DNA of 64,000 nt from the NCBI RefSeq assembly GCF_988243305.1, contig NZ_OZ547136.1; one strand, given 5' to 3'. The notes under the pieces are model-generated. The model searched no databases, was not told the origin of the DNA, and saw only the letters and a list, made by a program, of their open reading frames with translations. Of this stretch, positions 1-22,402 are shown piece after piece. The translations under genes and the position numbers were made by a program. Numbering within the stretch: the stretch's first letter is position 1; the number at the start of each line of letters is the position of its first letter.

Positions 1-139
1 GGACAACGTCACAGAGAAGTACACATTTTAATTCAATGGCCAGAAGGGGAGTTATTGCTGAATGTTATGCGCAAAAAATAAGAAATTATTTGTAGACTGA
101 ACCGCCCCGGGTTTCCTGGAGAGTGTTTTATCTGTGAAC

Positions 140-640
<501 letters not shown>

Positions 641-663
641 CTATTTCCCTGCCTCTCCTCCCC

Positions 664-697
664 GAACCGGACGTGCACCTTTCAGCGCATCCGGCTC
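664..697 (-). ncRNA. Group II intron domain V (catalytic hairpin)
   Basis: Minus strand GAGCCGGATGCGCTGAAAGGTGCACGTCCGGTTC: 34 nt, GAGC...GAAA...GGTTC pattern with a perfectly paired stem, about 50 nt before the inferred 3' splice site. Confidence 0.7.
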
Positions 698-702
698 TCC
701 AT

Positions 703-2226
703 TTAAATGCTGGCGAACGCCATTGCCACTTCTGTAAAGCGCGATGTATACGTGTTTCTGGTCTCCGTCCTCAGATAGGGATTACCTTCGGGTAGCCGCC
801 AGCGGAACAGCTTCTTGCCTTGCCCCACCAACCGGTACAGTATTTCGCCGCTGAGCTTGCCGTGATTGGTTTTACCAAATAAAACCCACGTTTTGCTCTG
901 ACCCGGTTTCGGTGATTTACACCACCACCTCATCAGGGAAGCGATACCTGTACGGTATTTGCGGGCCAGCCAGTGAGCCAGCTTCCAGAACACGACACGG
1001 TCGATATAACTGAAGACTTTGGCCTTAAAATCAACGAACTGATAGAACATGGCCCAGCCTTTCAGTTTTCGGTTGAGTTGTTCAGCCATATCGACTTTGC
1101 TTTCACTGTAGTTGCCTGATAACAGTGCTGTCAGCGATGCGGCGAAGTTTCTGGCTTTCTCCTGCGGGATCGTTGAGACCACTCGCATCTCGCCATAACG
1201 ACTGCGTTTGCGAATGATCCTGTGCCCCAGAAAGATAAAGCCGTCATTAACATGGGTGATTTTAGTCTTATCCATGTTCAGCCTGAGTTTCAGACTGCCT
1301 TCGAGCACACCCCGACACTCCTCCCTGATGGCTTCCGCCTGTGCTTTGGTGCCTTTGACGATGAGGACAAAATCATCGGCATAGCGGCAGTACGCCACCG
1401 CGGGTTTCCACTGCCAGTTTTCTCTGACCGCCGTACTTCGGCCCCGTTGGATACTGTTATTCCAGTACCACCGATCTTTTCTGGCTTTCCCGCTCAGGTA
1501 GCGCTCATGCAGGTATTGATCGAACTCATTCAGCATGATGTTCGATAATAGCGGCGATATAGCACCGCCCTGTGGCACACCTTCACTGGCCGCCCGAAAG
1601 AGACCGACATCGATATGTCCCGTCTTGATGGTTTTCCACAGCAGAGTCATGAAACGTGCGTCACTGATCCTGCGGCGTACAGCCTTCATCAGCAGTCGAT
1701 GATGTACGGTGTCGAAGTAACTGGACAGGTCGCCTTCAATCACCCAGCGTCCCCGGGTTTCACCACAGTCTGTGAGCTGTAATTTCACCGTGCGGATCGC
1801 GTGGTGGACACTGCGCTCAGGCCGGAAGCCATATGAGAGCGTATGAAAATCACTCTCCCATATCGGCTCCATCGCCATCAGCATGGCCCGCTGAACAATA
1901 CGATCCCGCAACGCGGGGATACCCAGTGGTCGCAGTTTGCCGTTGCTTTTAGGGATGTAAACCCGTCTGGCGGGCAAGGGCTGGTAGTGGCCTGAGAGTA
2001 ATTCATCCCTGAGGATTTGCAGCTCAACAGCCAGTCTGGCCTGTAGCATTGTTTTGTTCACGCCATCAACGCCGGGGGTATGGGCCCCCTTTGATGAAAG
2101 CGTGATCCGCGCCGCTTCAGCCAGCCATTCTGGTTGTGTTATCAGACGCAGCAGCCGTTGAATCCGTAGGGACGGATCGGTGGCTGCCCATGTGGCAAGC
2201 TTGCGTTGCATTTCGCTGATTATCAA
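703..2226 (-). CDS. Group II intron-encoded protein (reverse transcriptase/maturase)
   Basis: 507-aa ORF with RT motifs (PGVDGV near N-terminus, YADDFV active-site box) and a C-terminal maturase (X) region. No obvious HNH endonuclease motif. Start codon uncertain. Confidence 0.85.
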   Translation of the reverse strand: MIISEMQRKLATWAATDPSLRIQRLLRLITQPEWLAEAARITLSSKGAHTPGVDGVNKTMLQARLAVELQILRDELLSGHYQPLPARRVYIPKSNGKLRPLGIPALRDRIVQRAMLMAMEPIWESDFHTLSYGFRPERSVHHAIRTVKLQLTDCGETRGRWVIEGDLSSYFDTVHHRLLMKAVRRRISDARFMTLLWKTIKTGHIDVGLFRAASEGVPQGGAISPLLSNIMLNEFDQYLHERYLSGKARKDRWYWNNSIQRGRSTAVRENWQWKPAVAYCRYADDFVLIVKGTKAQAEAIREECRGVLEGSLKLRLNMDKTKITHVNDGFIFLGHRIIRKRSRYGEMRVVSTIPQEKARNFAASLTALLSGNYSESKVDMAEQLNRKLKGWAMFYQFVDFKAKVFSYIDRVVFWKLAHWLARKYRTGIASLMRWWCKSPKPGQSKTWVLFGKTNHGKLSGEILYRLVGQGKKLFRWRLPEGNPYLRTETRNTYTSRFTEVAMAFASI

Positions 2227-2882
2227 AGGTCTTCACCTCGTTAGGTCAGTTAATTCACGTCGCAAACACATTCAAACTGCTTCCCTTCGCCATGTAATGG
2301 GCTTTCCCCATCGCGGACTACTACGGAAGCTCCGCCAGCCAGCGCGTCATCGGAGCCATGCCCCCTTAACATCCGTCGCTGACCTTCCCCGGTTTACCTG
2401 CCTGGACTCAGGCATACTGAGGAGGCTGCCCGTCGCACTCTTTATCCTTGCTTGCCGCAAGTTGGCAGAAGTCAGCAACGCAAGTGTGATAGACGCTGCT
2501 GCCCCGGTGTTTCGCATACATGTCAAAACACCTTCGACCGGCAGTGCTTACGTATCACTGCCAGTTCCTCCTGCACGGCCTGTCAGATCACGTAGGCCGT
2601 GGTGACGTTTTCAACCCACAGAGGCGGATTAACGGGTTCATGTTCTTCAGCCTTTCAGTACTTAACCTTGAGGATCATCTCGGCTTAGTGATCTCGCCTC
2701 AATCCCCGTTGTCAGCGGGTTACATCACCCTGCGGGCATGCCGCAGGTCACTGCCGCTCAGGCTCTCCACCGTCACACCCGGTGGGATTGTTGGGTTTCT
2801 CATCGTGAGTTACCGGTTCAATATTCCAGACAGACTCGCGGTTCATTTAAGCATCCATGCCCGCCCTGAACTCCGGGCACAC

Positions 2883-3300
2883 CGTAAGTAAAATCAGCCA
2901 CCCACAGCTGGTCAGGACGTTCTGCCACGCACTGACGGTTTACGCGGTCACCTGTGGCAACGGTTTTCCGGCTGACGGTAGTGCGGACCTTTTTACCCCG
3001 GAGAACACCGGCAAGTCCCATAACCGCCATGAGGCGCGCCACTGTACATCTGGCCACCCTGATTCCTTCCCGTAACAACTGACGCCAGACTTTACGCACA
3101 CCGTACACCTGATGATTTTCATCGTATACGCGCTGTATCTCTCTCTTCAGCCAGTCATCGTGCTGCGCACGGGCACTGCGTTTATCCGGATGATGTCGCT
3201 GTTGCTGACAATGGTAATACGTTGACGGGGCAATATGCAGTTCGCTGCATACCGGTCCGACCCCGTACTGCTCACGCAGCTTATCCAGCAGTGGCATCAT
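2883..3300 (-). CDS. IS3-family transposase OrfB, N-terminal (5' exon) part
   Basis: ORF 2818..3300 reads ...[11 protein letters not shown] then runs into intron sequence. Overlaps orfA 3' end as expected for the -1 frameshift OrfAB arrangement. Confidence 0.75.
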
Positions 3301-3623
3301 TTTTTCCAGAGGCGGTCGAACTCCGCCTTCGCAAAATAAGCGGAAGCCTGGCGAAGGATATCGTTACTGCGGCGCAGTTCACGATTTTCACGTTCCAGCT
3401 CTTTCAGACGCTGACGTTCAGCGGTGGTGAGCCCTCCATCACCGCCCCCGGTATCCCGCTCATGCTGGCGAACCCAGACACGCAGAGTCTCCGGCGTACA
3501 GCCAATCTTTGGGGCAATGGAACAAATTGCCGCCCACTGTGAGTCATACTCATCCTGACTTTCCAGAACCATACGAATCGCCCGCTGACGGACTTCGGGG
3601 GAAAAACGAGTATTTTTAGTCAT
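3297..3623 (-). CDS. IS3-family transposase OrfA (HTH/leucine-zipper)
   Basis: 108-aa [22 protein letters not shown]...[36 protein letters not shown]; recalled as IS629/IS1203-type OrfA. Confidence 0.85.
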
Positions 3624-4023
3624 CCTGTTTACCTCTTTCTCAGGGAGTTTAGTCTCCAGGATTCCCGGGACGGTTCAGTTTCCATTCATGCTTTTAATCT
3701 TTCCCAAAATAACTAAAGCCAGATGTAACAGGCGAACATGGTAAAGTGTCCGCATATTTGAACCTCGCTGATAACGCCTTCACCTGACAACATATTGTCA
3801 GTGCTTCAGCATGTTAAGCTGTTCTTCTGAAAGGTCGGTAAGCTCCAGGACCATATTCCGACTTATCCTGGAAGGATGGCTGGTTCAGACTTCAGGATAT
3901 GGTTGAGGGTTACCTAGTGATGAAGTCTCTTGATCAGGAGATCTGATCAAGAGACAGCACTGGGTGGGGGTGACCATCTCATATCTATGCCTCCATTTGG
4001 CAATCATCAATTTTGACAGAAAT

Positions 4024-4056
4024 AAAGCACAGGGGCTGTTCACATAGCCCCTGTGC
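4024..4056 (-). terminator. Putative rho-independent terminator downstream of MFS gene
   Basis: 10-bp perfect stem CACAGGGGCT / AGCCCCTGTG (4026-4053) followed on the minus strand by a U-rich stretch CTTTATTTCTG. Confidence 0.4.
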
Positions 4057-4138
4057 AGAGCAATTGATAACTCTTACTTTGTTGAAAATTCATTGCAGCT
4101 AAGGTCAATGCCACAACAACAAAGCAAATAAAGATTAA

Positions 4139-5425
4139 TCAGGCTTTATTAGGTAAAGTATTTACCGAATGTGAAATCTTCACTGTCAGTGTAACAACTG
4201 CTGAACACAATAGCGTGGCTATCATAAAGATGAATGCACTGTTGTAACTTCCGTCGCTGCTTTGGATCAACCAGCCAATGACAGGGGCAGAAATAACCCC
4301 AGCCATCTGACCGCCAAAGTTAACGATACCTGATGCTCGCCCCATGATATTACTGGGAATAGTATCCATCAAAATGCCCCAGAACATTGCCATAGCGAAG
4401 AACATAAACAACGCTGAAACACATTGATAAACAACAGCCATATCCGCACTACTTACGCTGAAAGTCAAGTACAGGAACCCTGCAGCAATTACGGAAGTCA
4501 AGACATATAGTGTTTTACGTTGTGGTTTTAATTTATCTGAGCAATAGCCACCTAATAATGTCCCCCCAGCTCCAAATAGAAAGGGGATCGCAGCCATTAC
4601 GCCAGTTTTGGCCAATGAGAATTCACGAACAGTAATTAGATAACTTGGCAACCAAGTTGAAAAGCCCCAGAACGTAATATCAAACAAAAACCAAATGCAG
4701 GCCATCTGCCAAAGTACAGGCATCTTAAGTACATCTTTAAATGCAATATTACTTTTGCCTTGCCCCCCGTCCTGGTTATCTGATGCTAGCTCAACCAGAT
4801 CCTGCTGCGTTATTGCTGGATGATCTTTTGGATTATCACGGGTAAATAACCAGATACCCGCAGCAATAAATAAACCTGGTATACCCAATACGATGAAGAC
4901 CATGTGCCAGCCAAATGCACCGATAATGCTCGCCGCTACAACAACCGCCAGTGCTGGCCCTAAGGTGTTCACCGTAGACTGAATGGCTGTTGCGCGTCCT
5001 CGCTCTTTCGATGGAAAATAGGTCGAAATCATCTTCCATGAAGCTGACGGGAAACAACCTTCCCCTATACCAAAGAAGAAACGAACAATCAGCATTAACG
5101 GCAGAGCAAGTACCGCACCAGTAAGGCTGGTAAATATGGACCACCATGCAATACCAATGGCCATAATTTTCCTTGAGCCAAACTTATCGGCTAACATTCC
5201 ACCGGGAATCTGAAATGCAGCATAACCAATAAAAAAAGCACTAATAATTAAACCTTGTTGTGTTGTATCAAGATTTAAATCTTTGCCAATATAAGGTAAT
5301 GAAACACTCATGACCATTCTGTCGAGAAAAGAGAGTAACCATGCTAACCAAATTAAGGTCAAGACGGTATATCTTGCTTTCCAAAGTTTTGGTTTACCTA
5401 AAGGTAAAGATGTTTGTAGATTCAT
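4139..5425 (-). CDS. MFS transporter, anion:cation symporter (ACS) family-like
   Basis: 428-aa ORF with about 12 hydrophobic segments and MFS signature region ...GGMLADKFGSRK...; last gene of a four-gene minus-strand operon. Confidence 0.75.
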   Translation of the reverse strand: MNLQTSLPLGKPKLWKARYTVLTLIWLAWLLSFLDRMVMSVSLPYIGKDLNLDTTQQGLIISAFFIGYAAFQIPGGMLADKFGSRKIMAIGIAWWSIFTSLTGAVLALPLMLIVRFFFGIGEGCFPSASWKMISTYFPSKERGRATAIQSTVNTLGPALAVVVAASIIGAFGWHMVFIVLGIPGLFIAAGIWLFTRDNPKDHPAITQQDLVELASDNQDGGQGKSNIAFKDVLKMPVLWQMACIWFLFDITFWGFSTWLPSYLITVREFSLAKTGVMAAIPFLFGAGGTLLGGYCSDKLKPQRKTLYVLTSVIAAGFLYLTFSVSSADMAVVYQCVSALFMFFAMAMFWGILMDTIPSNIMGRASGIVNFGGQMAGVISAPVIGWLIQSSDGSYNSAFIFMIATLLCSAVVTLTVKISHSVNTLPNKA

Positions 5426-5502
5426 TGTAATGTCCTTTGAGTGTAACTATCTATCGCGACTCTTTTGGTCGCGATAGATCAATAAGTATTTAACGTAATT
5501 TA

Positions 5503-7098
5503 TTAATATTCTTTTCTGATAACTTTACCGCTACAGGCATAACTTTCCGTACCATTAATTAAGGCGATACGTCCATTGACCATTACAAGTTCAATTCCTT
5601 CTGGATACTGATTTGGCTCTACAAATGTTCCCTTATCTGCAATGGTTTTGGGATCGAACATTACAATATCAGCCGCATACCCAACTTTAAGTAATCCCCT
5701 GTTTTGCAGACCTAATACTTCCGCAGGTTTGCCGGTCATTTTACGAATTGCATCCTCCCAACTTAGGCATCCCTCTTCACGCACATATTTGCCCAGTACA
5801 CGAGGAAAGGCTCCAAACACTCGAGGATGGGGTTTTCCTGCCCCCATTAAACCATCAGTACAGACGTTCTGCTCTGCACGACAGAGGAATTTAATAACGT
5901 GTTCTTCTGTCCCATAGAAATCAACCATTCCTACAGCGTTTTCTTCTTCAAGAAGCAAATCGAAAGTGGCGTTATAGGGATCTTTACCGCGTAATTCGCC
6001 TAACTGGACAAGATTCAAACCTACGGCATCCTGATTTTTGGCAGTTTTCACACTGGTGACAAAAATTTGGTCTAGACCAGCAAAGTCAATAAAGTTATCC
6101 CATCCTGGAATACCTTGCTGAATGTCGTCGATCATTTTTGCACGCAGTTCTGGCGAAGCTAGTCGTTTCAGCAATTTATCCGTTCCTCCGGAATGGACCC
6201 ACGGAGGTAGGATTACACCAAGCATAGTGCTACCTGCAACATACGGATATTGATCGTAAGAGATACGTATTCCCTCTTTCTGCGCCTGTTCCAACATGCC
6301 AAGCATTTGGTCAATAAGCCCCCAGTTTTTCTTCCCACATACTTTCATATGTGATATATGGAGCCACACACCACTAGCTTTGGCTATATCGATTAATTCT
6401 TGGGTTGAATTGATAATATCATCAGCTTCACTGCGCTGATGCACCACAAAGAGCCCATCATATTTCGCTGTGACTTTACATAATTCAATCAACTCAGCAG
6501 TATCGCCAAAGGCGCAGGGCATATAGATAAGCCCAGAGGAAAGACCAAATGCCCCAGCTTTTAACTCCCGCTCAAGGATTTCACACATCTTTGCGACGTC
6601 TTCACGGGTAGAAGGGCGACCATCAAGTCCCATCGCTTCCATACGTACATTACCATGCGGAACCAGATACGCTAGATTTGTTGCTGGATGGTGAGATTCC
6701 AATAGGTTTAGGTATCCATCGGTATTTTTATATTTCCAGTCTATTTTATCGGTATCACCGTCAAGTCCAGCAATATTTTTACGCCAAGCTGGAATATATT
6801 TCTCAGGTAGTGGAGCCAATGCGACACCATCCTGTCCAAGTAACTCAGTAGTAATACCTTGACGTATTTTTGCCGATAGTTCAGGATTTATAATGGCCGA
6901 TAAATCAGAATGTGTGTGTGTATCAATAAAACCAGGGCAAATAATTTTTCCGCTTGCATCAATAAATTGTTCATTCTTACCAACATCAACGTGGCCGATG
7001 GAAATAATATATCCATCATCAACTACCACGTCAGTAATTATGCCCGGACTTCCTGTTCCATCAATAACATTTCCATTTTTAAAAATTGTTTTCATCAT
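5503..7098 (-). CDS. N-acyl-D-amino-acid deacylase (D-aminoacylase) family amidohydrolase
   Basis: ORF with KNGNVIDGTG...FIDTHTHSDL metal-binding amidohydrolase motifs. Start placed at the ATG (7098) preceded by GGAGA on the minus strand. Confidence 0.75.
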   Translation of the reverse strand: MMKTIFKNGNVIDGTGSPGIITDVVVDDGYIISIGHVDVGKNEQFIDASGKIICPGFIDTHTHSDLSAIINPELSAKIRQGITTELLGQDGVALAPLPEKYIPAWRKNIAGLDGDTDKIDWKYKNTDGYLNLLESHHPATNLAYLVPHGNVRMEAMGLDGRPSTREDVAKMCEILERELKAGAFGLSSGLIYMPCAFGDTAELIELCKVTAKYDGLFVVHQRSEADDIINSTQELIDIAKASGVWLHISHMKVCGKKNWGLIDQMLGMLEQAQKEGIRISYDQYPYVAGSTMLGVILPPWVHSGGTDKLLKRLASPELRAKMIDDIQQGIPGWDNFIDFAGLDQIFVTSVKTAKNQDAVGLNLVQLGELRGKDPYNATFDLLLEEENAVGMVDFYGTEEHVIKFLCRAEQNVCTDGLMGAGKPHPRVFGAFPRVLGKYVREEGCLSWEDAIRKMTGKPAEVLGLQNRGLLKVGYAADIVMFDPKTIADKGTFVEPNQYPEGIELVMVNGRIALINGTESYACSGKVIRKEY

Positions 7099-7161
7099 AA
7101 TTCTCCATGACGATGTCACATGGTGACACCGCCTGTAAGGGAAGAGGTTTTATCTTTAAAT

Positions 7162-8346
7162 TTAACGGAGATATAGTGTCTGAATAATGCTGTAATAACC
7201 ACTGGCCGAACCGGTTAATTGCTCGATCTCAATGTACTCATCAATGGTGTGCGCCAAGTTTTCCCGTGAAGGTCCAAACCCAATAGTTTTGATCCCCGCT
7301 TCACCAGCATAGTGGCTTCCGTTTGTACAAAATGAGTACTGCGTGATGGTCGGTGAAAACCCTGCCTTACGAATACCAACCAACGCAGCTTGTACAAATT
7401 CATCAGATTCGTCAAACACCCACCCAGGGAAGAAACGCTCACCTTCAATAGTTGCTCCTGTGTAGCAGGACTCTTGGCCTACTGCGTACGAGACCCGCCC
7501 TTTAAACTGCGGATCGAGGATTGCGAACTCTGCCAGTACACGTTCCAGAGGTGCAATAACGTTTTCTTTCGTTTCTCCGACAAGCAAACGGCGATCGTAA
7601 GTTGCACGGCAGTAATCCGGCACTACTGATGCTCCCGGATATGGCGATGATTTAATGTCTGTTAACTCTAAAATTCCGGGGCCAAGTATCGGATGCATTG
7701 GTGGTACAATGGTACGAATTTTGTCAATTAATTGTGCCATTTTGTAGACAGCATTTATTCCTGCCTGTGGATTGGCTGAGTGAGCTGGTTTCCCAAATGT
7801 TTCGACAACAATTTCAGCGCGTCCACGCTGACCGATTTTCAGGTTTAATTCGGAAGCTTCACCGATAATTACGTAATCAGGTTTAAAACGTTCACTGACC
7901 AAGCGTGCCGCAACACCTTCAAAACACTCTTCATGGACAATACAGGCTACGTAAATTTTGCCGGAAAAATTACGCTGGTAATCCTGACCAAAAAAACCAA
8001 CGGCGGAGATCATAGCCGCAACAGCTCCCTTCATGTCGGTTGCCCCCCGACCATAAATTTTGCCTTCGTCAATATCACCGCCATATGGATTCCGAGTCCA
8101 CATATCTTCGTTTACAGGCACAGTATCAATATGCCCATCCAAAACGAGAGTTTTCCCTGGCTGATTGCCAATAATACCACCAATAATATTGCCATACTTA
8201 TCGATATGAATATCGTCAAACTGGTAATACTGCATCATATCTTTTATGGCATTCACTACATCCCCTTCCTGACCGGAATAGCTTTTTTGTTGGATCAATG
8301 TCTGACAATTTTTAATAACTTCTTTATAACGACTTGCAGATAACAT
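7162..8346 (-). CDS. M20-family peptidase (ArgE/DapE/YgeY-like)
   Basis: 394-aa ORF with HIDTVPV and GRGATDMKG metal-ligand motifs typical of M20 deacylases. Confidence 0.75.
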   Translation of the reverse strand: MLSASRYKEVIKNCQTLIQQKSYSGQEGDVVNAIKDMMQYYQFDDIHIDKYGNIIGGIIGNQPGKTLVLDGHIDTVPVNEDMWTRNPYGGDIDEGKIYGRGATDMKGAVAAMISAVGFFGQDYQRNFSGKIYVACIVHEECFEGVAARLVSERFKPDYVIIGEASELNLKIGQRGRAEIVVETFGKPAHSANPQAGINAVYKMAQLIDKIRTIVPPMHPILGPGILELTDIKSSPYPGASVVPDYCRATYDRRLLVGETKENVIAPLERVLAEFAILDPQFKGRVSYAVGQESCYTGATIEGERFFPGWVFDESDEFVQAALVGIRKAGFSPTITQYSFCTNGSHYAGEAGIKTIGFGPSRENLAHTIDEYIEIEQLTGSASGYYSIIQTLYLR

Positions 8347-8378
8347 GGTGTTCCTCCGTTATTATTTAAATTAGAAAA

Positions 8379-9593
8379 TTACTGCTGAAGTACCGGATAC
8401 TGAGTCCCCCAGACAATATTGCGATATGATTCTGGGTCAGTGTCACCTTCAGTGCTGATTAGCAAAACACGGGAATGTGAATCCAGCCCCAACTGTTCAC
8501 GGGTTTGCCTAAATGTAGGGGAGGTCATCAGTAACGCCAGAAGCCCTGTGGTTACTGCCCCTGACTCTCCAGAAATAATCTGCGGATCTCCTGCTAACGG
8601 ATTTCCCAAAATACGCATACCCAACATTGCAACCTCGTCAGGACAGGAGGCAAAGGCTGTAGCATAGTCACGTAGCAGCTTCCAGCCGATACTGTTAGCC
8701 TCGCCACAAGCCAGTCCTGCCATGAGTGTCTGCAAATCCCCCCCTACTGCCACGGCATTTCCATCTTTCGCCAAGGCTGAGCGGTAGAGGCAATCGGCAA
8801 TTAATGCTTCTACAACGATTACTTTTGGACGATTATCCCCCCAAGCAGCAGTCACCATTCCCTGGACCATACCCGCAAACGAACCAACCCCCGCTTGGAC
8901 AAAGATATGTGTTGGTGCTACCTGATGGAGTTGAGCCATAGCCTCCAGCATCAACGTGCTATAGCCCTGCATGATCCATAGAGGAATTTTTTCATACCCT
9001 TCCCAAGCGGTGTCCTGAACAACAATCCAGCCGGATTTATCTGCCTGCTCTGCGGTCATTCGAACAGCATCGTCATAGTTCATATTGACAATTTCAGCCG
9101 TAGCACCTTCATTGCGAATTGATGACAGGCGTTGTTGCGAAGACCCCTTTGGCATATAAACTACTGCATTTTGCTTTAGCTGACGCGCCATCCACGCTAC
9201 TCCCCGCCCGTGGTTACCGTCAGTAGTAGTAGCAAAGGTAACTGTTTTCAGATAATGGCGCACATCGTCACTAGTCATGATATCAAACGACAATTCATCA
9301 ATCTCTTTCCCTAGTAATTCTGCGATATGACATGCCATGGCATAGGCGCCACCCAGCACTTTGAAGGCTTTTAGGCCAAAACGCTGAGACTCATCTTTGA
9401 GATAGATCTTTTTTATCCCTAATTTTTGTGAAAGCGCAGGTAATGTATAGAGCGGCGTTGGCTCGTAGCCTGGTATTGTCCGATGAAAATTCAATGCTTT
9501 TACCAGCTCATTGTGACTAAATGAAGCTAGTGGTGCGCTAGGTTGCTGAGTAAATTGTGTCTGGTTAATAAAAAAGGATATTTTTTCCTGCAT
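8379..9593 (-). CDS. Diaminopropionate ammonia-lyase-like PLP enzyme (DpaL/YgeX family)
   Basis: 404-aa ORF, fold-type II PLP enzyme with lysine in ...QRFGLKAFKVLGG...; first gene of the operon. Confidence 0.75.
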   Translation of the reverse strand: MQEKISFFINQTQFTQQPSAPLASFSHNELVKALNFHRTIPGYEPTPLYTLPALSQKLGIKKIYLKDESQRFGLKAFKVLGGAYAMACHIAELLGKEIDELSFDIMTSDDVRHYLKTVTFATTTDGNHGRGVAWMARQLKQNAVVYMPKGSSQQRLSSIRNEGATAEIVNMNYDDAVRMTAEQADKSGWIVVQDTAWEGYEKIPLWIMQGYSTLMLEAMAQLHQVAPTHIFVQAGVGSFAGMVQGMVTAAWGDNRPKVIVVEALIADCLYRSALAKDGNAVAVGGDLQTLMAGLACGEANSIGWKLLRDYATAFASCPDEVAMLGMRILGNPLAGDPQIISGESGAVTTGLLALLMTSPTFRQTREQLGLDSHSRVLLISTEGDTDPESYRNIVWGTQYPVLQQ

Positions 9594-9691: not shown

Positions 9692-9973
9692 GTTTTTTAT
9701 TAGAGTTAGTAAAAAGTAACATATATTTCTTTAACCTTTTCATTTCAATGAATTAGGAAGTCATTGCGTCATAATGAATCCCCCTCCCTAGTATTGGCCT
9801 TATTTCAATGCCTGATAAATTCTCATTAATGAGAATTTATGTGATCAATCAAAAGAAAATAATAAAAACACAAATAAAACATATAGATATATTGATCTTT
9901 TTCAAGTAAATTTTTCCTAATATCATATAATTTCTCATTTTTCTGAGAATTTTATACTGACTGGAGGAGAACC

Positions 9974-16745: not shown

Positions 16746-17258
16746 CAAAGCCATAGCTCAGGTGCGTGCGGTCCGCACGGCGCGGAGCCTGAGGGCTTCA
16801 CGGCGGAGGATATGCGGACCATCGGGCGCTACCTGCACTGCGAGGCGAATTGGAACATCGACTCGGACTTGAGCCTGTGAGGGGGGCCGTCCTCGGGAGA
16901 AGTTTTTCTGCGAAATAACTATGCGCCGACGGACGAACACTCGTTCGTGTGGCCTATGGCCCAGGGCAAAGGCTGGGGGGCCCCTATTAAGTTGTCAAGA
17001 ATGTTTATTACACCAGCGGGGTATAAAAAGTACCGTCACGCATCATGGCGAATAGAACGTCGCAGCGCCTTGTTCACAGTGTTTTCACTCGTGGTTATCT
17101 GTACCCGTGAATATCAGACCATTGTCACCAGCCCATGCCTGTAATTCTGTCAGAATGGCTACAGCCTGTTTGTTGGGTGGTACAAGATGCAGTGCCCTCT
17201 GGTTCCCTCTGATGAGAGTCCTGGCGGGGTGAACAAATAAAAAAGAAAACATAAATAA

Positions 17259-22349: not shown

Positions 22350-22371
22350 TTCGTTATTCAACGAGACGTAA

Positions 22372-22402
22372 AAACGCCGACCATTGGTCGGCGTTTTGCT
22401 TT
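22372..22402 (+). terminator. Rho-independent terminator of rpsF-priB-rpsR-rplI operon
   Basis: ACGCCGACC-ATTG-GTCGGCGT hairpin followed by TTTGCTTT. Confidence 0.7.

Follow-up and report, generated by a model that had tools for sequence, protein, structure and literature searches.

The window, meaning here the whole 64-kb stretch of DNA that was analysed, contains a pile-up of mobile DNA in which an IS629/group II intron composite, a scrap of integrase and Rpn-family pseudogene sequence and the tail of an ISEc13 element follow one another and are succeeded by cargo genes. The interval 98-3677 is occupied by an IS629-family element (IS3 family) with a group II intron, and the IS3 transposase frame is broken; at least 80% of a query taken from this composite is covered in 1401 E. 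coli genomes. The cargo stretches from 3959 to about 17,230 (roughly 13 kb), with E. coli homology resuming near 17,230, and its part 3960-9000 had no match in 5426 complete E. coli genomes or in PLSDB plasmids. Elsewhere the window is E. coli core genome (99.9%), and a host other than E. coli, considered because 3960-9000 had no match, was rejected on these grounds. The features referred to below are as follows.

613-699, minus strand: Intron_gpII domain (Rfam)
706-2226, minus strand: reverse transcriptase (RT)/maturase gene of the 98-3677 composite
3226-3342, minus strand: ALIL frameshift pseudoknot (Rfam)
3678-3873, plus strand: integrase pseudogene fragment and 3' end of an Rpn-family pseudogene, 92% identical to the E. 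coli 'integrase / Rpn family' region
3874-3958, plus strand: ISEc13 relic (IS4 family, IS50/Tn5 group), element positions 1467-1550 of 1550, the right-hand 84-85 bp
3875-3946, plus strand: remnant of the transposase gene, the last 23 codons and TGA (3944-3946), translated as DGWFRLQDMVEGYLVMKSLDQEI followed by the stop
3925-3937, plus strand: left (inner) arm of the palindrome, within the transposase-tail codons K-S-L-D-Q
3938-3942, plus strand: loop GAGAT (codons E and I), forming the middle GATC together with C3943
3943-3955, plus strand: right (outer) arm, corresponding to terminal inverted repeat positions 4-16 when numbered from the tip at 3958 inward, and holding the TGA at 3944-3946
3940-3958, minus strand: 19-bp terminal inverted repeat of the inside-end type, CTGTCTCTTGATCAGATCT from the tip inward
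3959-3977, plus strand: CACTGGGTGGGGGTGACCA, the flank beyond the ISEc13 tip, rich in G as are the right flanks of other copies
4139-5425, minus strand: MFS transporter, cargo island
5503-7119, minus strand: amidohydrolase-family protein, cargo island
7162-8346, minus strand: YgeY-family hydrolase, cargo island

An earlier note on this DNA had reported a perfect 12-bp inverted repeat at 3925-3955, and the repeat is indeed present. The sequence reads GTCTCTTGATCA-GGAGATC-TGATCAAGAGAC, and the repeat finder adds one further pair, giving arms of 13 nt (3925-3937 and 3943-3955) that are 100% complementary and separated by a 5-nt gap. The GATC sites reported in both arms and in the loop were also found, three in total, the middle one running from the loop one base into the right arm. 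The distance of about 250 bp given for the end of the IS3-family element agrees with the 248 bp that separate the beginning of the palindrome from the IS629-type end near 3677. With arms of at least 13 bp and a loop of at most 10, a perfect inverted repeat of the hairpin type occurs only three times in the 64-kb window, and 20 first-order-Markov randomisations contained none under the same arm and loop criteria. The 13-mer itself occurs within the window only as the two arms of the palindrome. The predicted folding energy is -34 kcal/mol over 71 nt for RNA (z = -5.6 versus shuffles) and -13.7 kcal/mol over 41 nt for DNA (z = -5.35). The palindrome is real and non-random, far beyond chance. The stability of the DNA hairpin makes a cruciform physically possible, and the role of a cruciform-prone site, one of the options raised previously, is unsupported.

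Several other structures of this kind are present in the window. A palindrome with 13-bp arms and no loop lies at 9815-9840 (ATAAATTCTCATT directly followed by AATGAGAATTTAT), another with 13-bp arms at 22371-22397 (AAAACGCCGACCA-T-TGGTCGGCGTTTT) resembles a bidirectional terminator, and a third, at 5449-5479, has 12-bp arms (ATCTATCGCGAC-7 nt-GTCGCGATAGAT). On the minus strand, a terminator-like hairpin at 4027-4056, GCACAGGGGCT-8 nt-AGCCCCTGTGC followed by TTTATTTCTG, is located just downstream of the MFS transporter gene.

The nature of the palindrome is revealed by its homology to ISEc13. An intact copy of this element (L004:1427-2976), compared with the window by blastn, produced a single match, in which element positions 1467-1550 correspond to 3874-3957 with 98.8% identity (83/84); the terminal base, the palindrome, the stop codon and the GATC sites are all shared. 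ISEc13 is 1550 bp long and has the terminus ...AAGAGACAG, with unrelated flanks immediately beyond it in three intact copies; the window copy ends at the same base as these three, and the DNA beyond diverges. The terminal ISEc13 sequence is ...TGATCAAGAGACAG. A 501-bp query around the palindrome splits into independent pieces across public genomes, and the piece from 3874 to about 3977 corresponds to a segment of its own, present in roughly 2000 plasmids and in thousands of chromosomes. A longer open frame, ending ...GWFRLQDMVEGYLVMKSLDQEI before the stop, has this segment as its 3' tail in the matching records, and the matches in other genomes begin at the ISEc13 boundary. A place covering at least 80% of the 1.5-kb ISEc13 query was found in 874 E. 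coli genomes, and EPEC E2348/69 has about 30 places with ISEc13-related DNA. RefSeq names the intact copies 'IS4-like element ISEc13 family transposase' (WP_000244358.1). The papers found to mention ISEc13 name it only in lists of mobile elements and contain no functional work on it.

Nothing was found against the ISEc13 identity of 3874-3958. Judged by sequence homology, the palindrome makes up the final 31 bases of an ISEc13 leftover of 85 bases and is ordinary genomic debris at this place; the feature is already known, being a fragment of a catalogued element. Among the options of the earlier note, a fragment of another element's end was thus the right one, since the palindrome is the right terminus of ISEc13. 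Its position just outside an IS3-family element was described correctly, but it has no association with that neighbour. Likewise, the term non-coding DNA is appropriate in that the gene is lost, although 3875-3946 still reads the last 23 transposase codons and the stop. Far from being a single-copy sequence lacking conservation, it ends three of the three intact ISEc13 copies examined, a related hairpin exists in distant relatives, and ISEc13-related DNA is present in 3204 of 5426 complete E. coli genomes. The idea of a protein-binding palindrome holds for the outer arm, which lies within a terminal repeat of the kind bound by Tn5-type transposases (19/19 with the IS50 inside end), but there is no sign of an operator-like, dimer-bound site. 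More generally, a host regulatory palindrome unrelated to mobile DNA, whether an operator or a cruciform site, could be imagined from the perfect dyad symmetry and the GATC sites. However, ISEc13 accounts for every base, promoter-like sites nearby on either strand are only weak, chance-level matches, and the flanks are pseudogene debris. This explanation is effectively refuted by homology and can be regarded as extremely improbable. A dispersed extragenic palindrome (REP/BIME or MITE) was also considered and rejected: the sequence occurs once in the window and is contiguous with ISEc13 in every inspected copy.

The remnant translation DGWFRLQDMVEGYLVMKSLDQEI agrees in every residue with the C-terminus of WP_000244358.1, the ISEc13 transposase, and the sole difference from the E2348/69 copy is a synonymous replacement of CTG by CTA. 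The full ISEc13 transposase is homologous over its full length to the Tn5 transposase (PDB 1MUH and others, E 6e-84) and includes the NCBIfam transpos_IS4_3 model, the IS4/Tn5 N-terminal DNA-binding domain, and the Pfam domains Tnp_DNA_bind, DDE_Tnp_1 and Dimer_Tnp_Tn5. Compared with intact ISEc13, the window copy keeps 5% of the element, lacks the transposase gene and the left end, shows no recognisable duplication of a target site and is joined to pseudogene DNA that is unrelated to it. The window contains no intact Tn5-type DDE transposase gene, only its last 23 codons, whereas such a gene is present in intact ISEc13 elsewhere. The left-end motif CTGTCTCTTATACACA, searched with up to 3 mismatches, is absent from the 64-kb window, and neither a motif search nor a blast of the whole element found a second right end there. 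Because it has no transposase gene and no partner end in 64 kb, the window copy is an inert relic. The possibilities of a functional IS4-family insertion sequence and of a part of a composite transposon were rejected, the former because the combination of a transposase gene with two inverted terminal repeats is missing in the window and the latter because no partner end lies within it.

The scrap 3678-3873 has the IS629 end on its left and the ISEc13 relic on its right, and the Rpn-family nuclease pseudogene of the matching E. coli region is frameshifted. The junction of the scrap with the relic, ...CTTATCCTGGAA joined to GGATGGCTGG..., sets the truncation point. The left boundary of the relic is, as it reads, an illegitimate join, by which the other 1466 bp of ISEc13 were lost. 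This junction was found in no complete E. coli genome, as no place covers 80% of the 501-bp query. On the other side, plasmid matches extend about 17-19 bp past the element tip, and the right flanks in relatives show a G-run or stem-half pattern. The flank 3959-3977, compared with L001:4088-4110 and L003:4086-4110, is similar (G-run, ...GGGTGGGGG...) to that of copies on the E. coli F-type plasmid pRHB11-C13_2 and on Shigella pINV. The similarity suggests either a shared ancestral insertion site or a preference of the clade for G/C hairpin halves. An IS110-family element (ISSfl4/ISEc20) follows the ISEc13 tip within tens of bases in the Shigella plasmids.

The 19-bp end of the relic is intact, identical to that of functional copies, and is situated exactly at the border of the cargo, roughly 13 kb that other E. 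coli genomes lack. It might be supposed that this solo inside-type end is still in use, the transposase of an intact ISEc13 in the same cell pairing it with a further end and so mobilising adjacent DNA such as the rare island. However, the 64-kb window contains no second ISEc13/IS50-type end of either kind, and the end faces away from the island, so that the body of the element would lie leftward and the island on the donor-flank side. Besides, Tn5-type transposases are known to act mainly in cis. Continued use of the solo end is therefore very improbable. That 3874-3958 is a dead, 5'-truncated ISEc13 relic, the palindrome being the way in which this element ends, can be stated with high confidence.

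The annotated IS50R beside aph(3')-IIa in Tn5 on plasmid pMAK2 (L007) served as the IS50 reference. The terminal repeat of ISEc13, CTGTCTCTTGATCAGATCT, equals the IS50 inside end at 19 of 19 positions, including both GATC (Dam) sites, while the left end of ISEc13 (CTGTCTCTTATACACAAAT) and the IS50 outside end (CTGACTCTTATACACAAGT) agree at 17 of 19. The relic thus resembles the inside end of IS50/Tn5 in having the identical 19-mer, an embedded stop codon and two GATC sites. In the literature, this 19-mer was met only within Tn5/nptII primers. The transposases of IS50 and ISEc13 are homologous, with about 39-41% identity (E 6e-84). Unlike ISEc13, IS50 continues as ...TGATCCCCTGCGCC and has no 13-bp inverted copy of its own end. 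The transposase tail of ISEc13 (KSLDQEI before the stop) is shorter than that of IS50 (KDLMAQGIKI), and a hairpin at the left end, absent from IS50, is present in the ISEc13 clade. In the Tn5 end, positions beyond 12 matter, and elements of the Tn5 type duplicate 9 bp of the target. It is likely that in live elements the outer arm acts as it does in IS50, being bound by the transposase and cleaved at the tip. Transposase binding in live ISEc13 would probably be damped when the GATC sites are fully Dam-methylated. The attention paid in the earlier note to Dam sites was apt: a passage of PMC3347997, citing Roberts et al. 1985 and Yin et al. 1988, describes methylation of transposon-end GATC as inhibiting transposase binding, an effect established, according to the same passage, for Tn5/IS10 ends.

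Eighty loci encoding relatives with 38-57% protein identity were collected from Photorhabdus, Xenorhabdus, Vibrio, Photobacterium, Alishewanella, Pseudoalteromonas, Shewanella, Legionella and other genera and were supplemented with copies of ISEc13 and copies from Vibrio and Photobacterium plasmids. In 48 distinct relatives with 38-100% protein identity, the terminal TGATCAAGAGACAG hardly varies. Perfect stems anchored at the terminal GAC and 9-13 bp long occur in 24 of 48 distinct right ends, mostly at 49-53% protein identity, and the longest stems (13 bp) belong to ISEc13 and an element of a Vibrio parahaemolyticus plasmid. IS50, the Photorhabdus-type elements (56% identity, among the closest sampled), the Legionella-type elements and other distant elements have no such hairpin. 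The loop varies in relatives from 5 to 16 nt. It is GAGCT in the Shigella plasmid copies, where the middle GATC is destroyed, and the innermost pair differs by a compensatory swap, from G-C in ISEc13 to C-G in the Vibrio pVP128-1 element. In most clade members the inner arm copies only positions 3-11 of the end.

Synonymous codon usage in the inner arm was assessed in a codon alignment of 52 distinct relatives, which are phylogenetically related, so that the statistics are descriptive and the sequences not independent. Ser452 is encoded by TCT in 77% and Leu453 by CTT in 82% of these genes, versus 17% and 16% gene-wide. Ordered from the lowest codon entropy, the two columns rank fourth and fifth of 130 conserved degenerate-codon columns; Leu codons near the inner arm rank 68, 120 and 129. 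In an alignment of 39 sequences the pairing is register-specific, 88% of the alignment cells being paired versus 33-49% with the partner slid. Covariation in the same alignment is nearly absent, with one double change in helix 2; it is near-uninformative here because the 3' arm is the invariant terminal repeat. RNAalifold, applied to these 39 sequences, did not recover the terminal helix and gave only 4 bp of a different, upstream helix. The Rfam covariance models had no match at 3874-3958 at E<=1, and only ALIL and the group II intron were matched in 1-6000.

Vibrio-type elements possess a second conserved hairpin, GGATGGTT-9 nt-AACCATCC, about 25 nt upstream of the terminal one (alignment columns 21-45; for example L008:1918-1942), which is absent from ISEc13 and from the window. 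In three elements (L028, L051 and L052) it carries a compensatory change from T-A to C-G that alters two residues (F to L and T to A), and its codons T442 (ACC) and G436 (GGA) rank first and seventh of 130 for synonymous freezing.

At the opposite end, as seen among the relatives L004-L090, the left terminal repeat of the ISEc13/Vibrio-type clade runs directly into a canonical intrinsic terminator of the form AAATCCCnnnn-loop-nnnnGGGATTTTTTTT or AAATCCC...GGGATTTTTTTT (for example L008:505-560, L009:480-530 and L004:1427-1490). Its stem shows abundant compensatory variation among relatives, and 28 of the 37 distinct left ends carry a T-run of at least 5. Lying upstream of the transposase gene, this terminator faces into the element, an orientation that would stop transcription coming in from outside. 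ISEc13 keeps the left hairpin, CACAAATCCCC-ACCC-GGGGATTTGTG (-18.6 kcal/mol), with a degenerate T-run; the Photorhabdus-type, Legionella-type and IS50 elements have neither hairpin nor terminator at this end. Among 39 distinct elements, which are phylogenetically related so that the counts are descriptive, 26 have both the left and the right hairpin, six have neither and seven are discordant.

Protective terminators and hairpins inside IS ends block read-in transcription. The right-end hairpin is like them in being stable, placed just inside the terminal repeat and conserved in the clade; unlike protective terminators, it has no U-tract in either direction and lies inside coding sequence, and for these two reasons it is not a canonical intrinsic terminator. 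An intrinsic terminator was accordingly rejected for the palindrome of the window, whose stem is followed by the tails AGCACTGG (plus strand) and TTCATCAC (minus strand) and is passed over by a pattern scan that flags only 4056-4027 on the minus strand.

The frozen inner-arm codons, the conservation of the hairpin and its co-occurrence with the left terminator suggest that a nucleic-acid structure is under selection, an RNA stem-loop being the most plausible one. The proposal that selection in the ISEc13/Vibrio-type clade has favoured an inner arm complementary to the terminal repeat, and that this pairing works at the level of RNA, is a tentative one, plausible but short of probable. The stem-loop (about -20 kcal/mol) would form at the extreme 3' end of the transposase mRNA, around the stop codon, and would give this mRNA a defined, nuclease-resistant end whatever DNA surrounds the insertion. 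The 3' ends of the message would then be expected just past ...GAUCAAGAGAC, and the structure would be the counterpart of the intrinsic terminator inside the left end. A role of REPs in stabilising mRNA is cited in PMC1525189. The ISEc13 structure is comparable to REP/BIME stabilisers in that a message ends in a stem-loop that has no U-tract and is a proposed barrier to 3' exonucleases, its stabilising role being hypothetical; unlike REP/BIME, it is not dispersed independently and exists only as the tip of one IS. The evident viability of the hairpin-less IS50, Photorhabdus-type and Legionella-type elements counts against a function of the RNA stem-loop.

Alternatively, and this is the main rival, the hairpin may be a by-product, the outer arm being kept for transposase binding and the inner one for the K-S-L-D/E dimerisation tail, with the complementarity an accident inherited by the clade. 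This is consistent with the outer arm being invariant throughout the group with or without a hairpin, with the essential lack of covariation and with the ability of IS50 and several lineages to manage without the structure. The K-S-[LV]-[DE] tail, too, is conserved even in the Photorhabdus type, where the codons TCA GTT are non-complementary. However, protein constraint cannot explain the freezing of TCT CTT (ranks 4-5 of 130), given that the adjacent Leu and Ala codons vary freely. Moreover, pairing reaches 11-13 bp in several independent lineages with different loops, and the co-occurrence with the left-end terminator is left unexplained. An accidental origin of the complementarity seems rather unlikely, though it retains some weight.

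At the DNA level, the inner arm could be a second, inverted transposase-binding site, a decoy or auxiliary one, modulating the right end. In ISEc13 it repeats end positions 3-15 in the left-end orientation (AAGTCTCTTGATCAG versus CTGTCTCTTGATCAG), and the overlap of two sites could make binding to them mutually exclusive. Nevertheless, most clade members reproduce only positions 3-11 and differ in the rest, the terminal CT of the real tip is replaced by AA, AT or CA, and the legend to Fig. 1 of PMC3347997 places the Tn5 binding determinants across the whole 19-bp end. Positions 3-11 alone are too few for a second transposase site, and it is therefore pairing that forms the common denominator of the clade. 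A second binding site is thus improbable, and a selected RNA stem-loop is the reading followed below.

The insertion sites of the relatives were reconstructed from the flanks of the copies; stable hairpins with the duplication centred on the loop came, for example, from L005, L008, L009, L020, L034, L039, L041, L042, L048, L049, L055, L058, L064, L087 and L088. A fixed 9-bp duplication rule failed in most relatives, and a flexible search gave apparent duplications of 8-10 bp; the duplication was missing at 17 of the relatives' 46 sites, owing to recombination between copies or to errors of automated end-calling. At 17 of 29 reconstructed empty sites, a hairpin with a 5-12 bp stem has its loop at the centre of the duplication, and many sites possess A- and/or T-runs, which marks them as rho-independent terminators, for example AAAAGGCCACCTTCGGGTGGCCTTTTTTT. 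It seems that the Tn5-like clade of the ISEc13/Vibrio type targets the loops of terminator hairpins. A preference for palindromic targets is known for Tn5, and targeting of REPs for the IS4-family element ISRm22 (PMC1525189); insertion into terminator loops is therefore a variation on a known theme.

Taken together with the proposed RNA stem-loop, these observations could describe a 'terminator-dwelling' lineage, which inserts at the apex of terminators, carries its own replacement terminator at the left end and a selected RNA stem-loop at the right end, and of which the palindrome of the window would be a fossil. This broader picture is speculative and rather doubtful at present. Within it, the second, upstream hairpin of the Vibrio-type members may also define or stabilise the 3' end of the mRNA.

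For the annotation of this genome, the palindrome is appropriately labelled 'ISEc13 right-end remnant (solo IS50-type inside end)' and not a regulatory site, and the relic is a scar bordering a rare accessory island. If the hairpins at both ends and the strong preference of the clade for terminator loops are confirmed, the clade would be an example of insertion sequences adapting their ends to a specific genomic niche, a finding of modest interest, mainly to transposon specialists.
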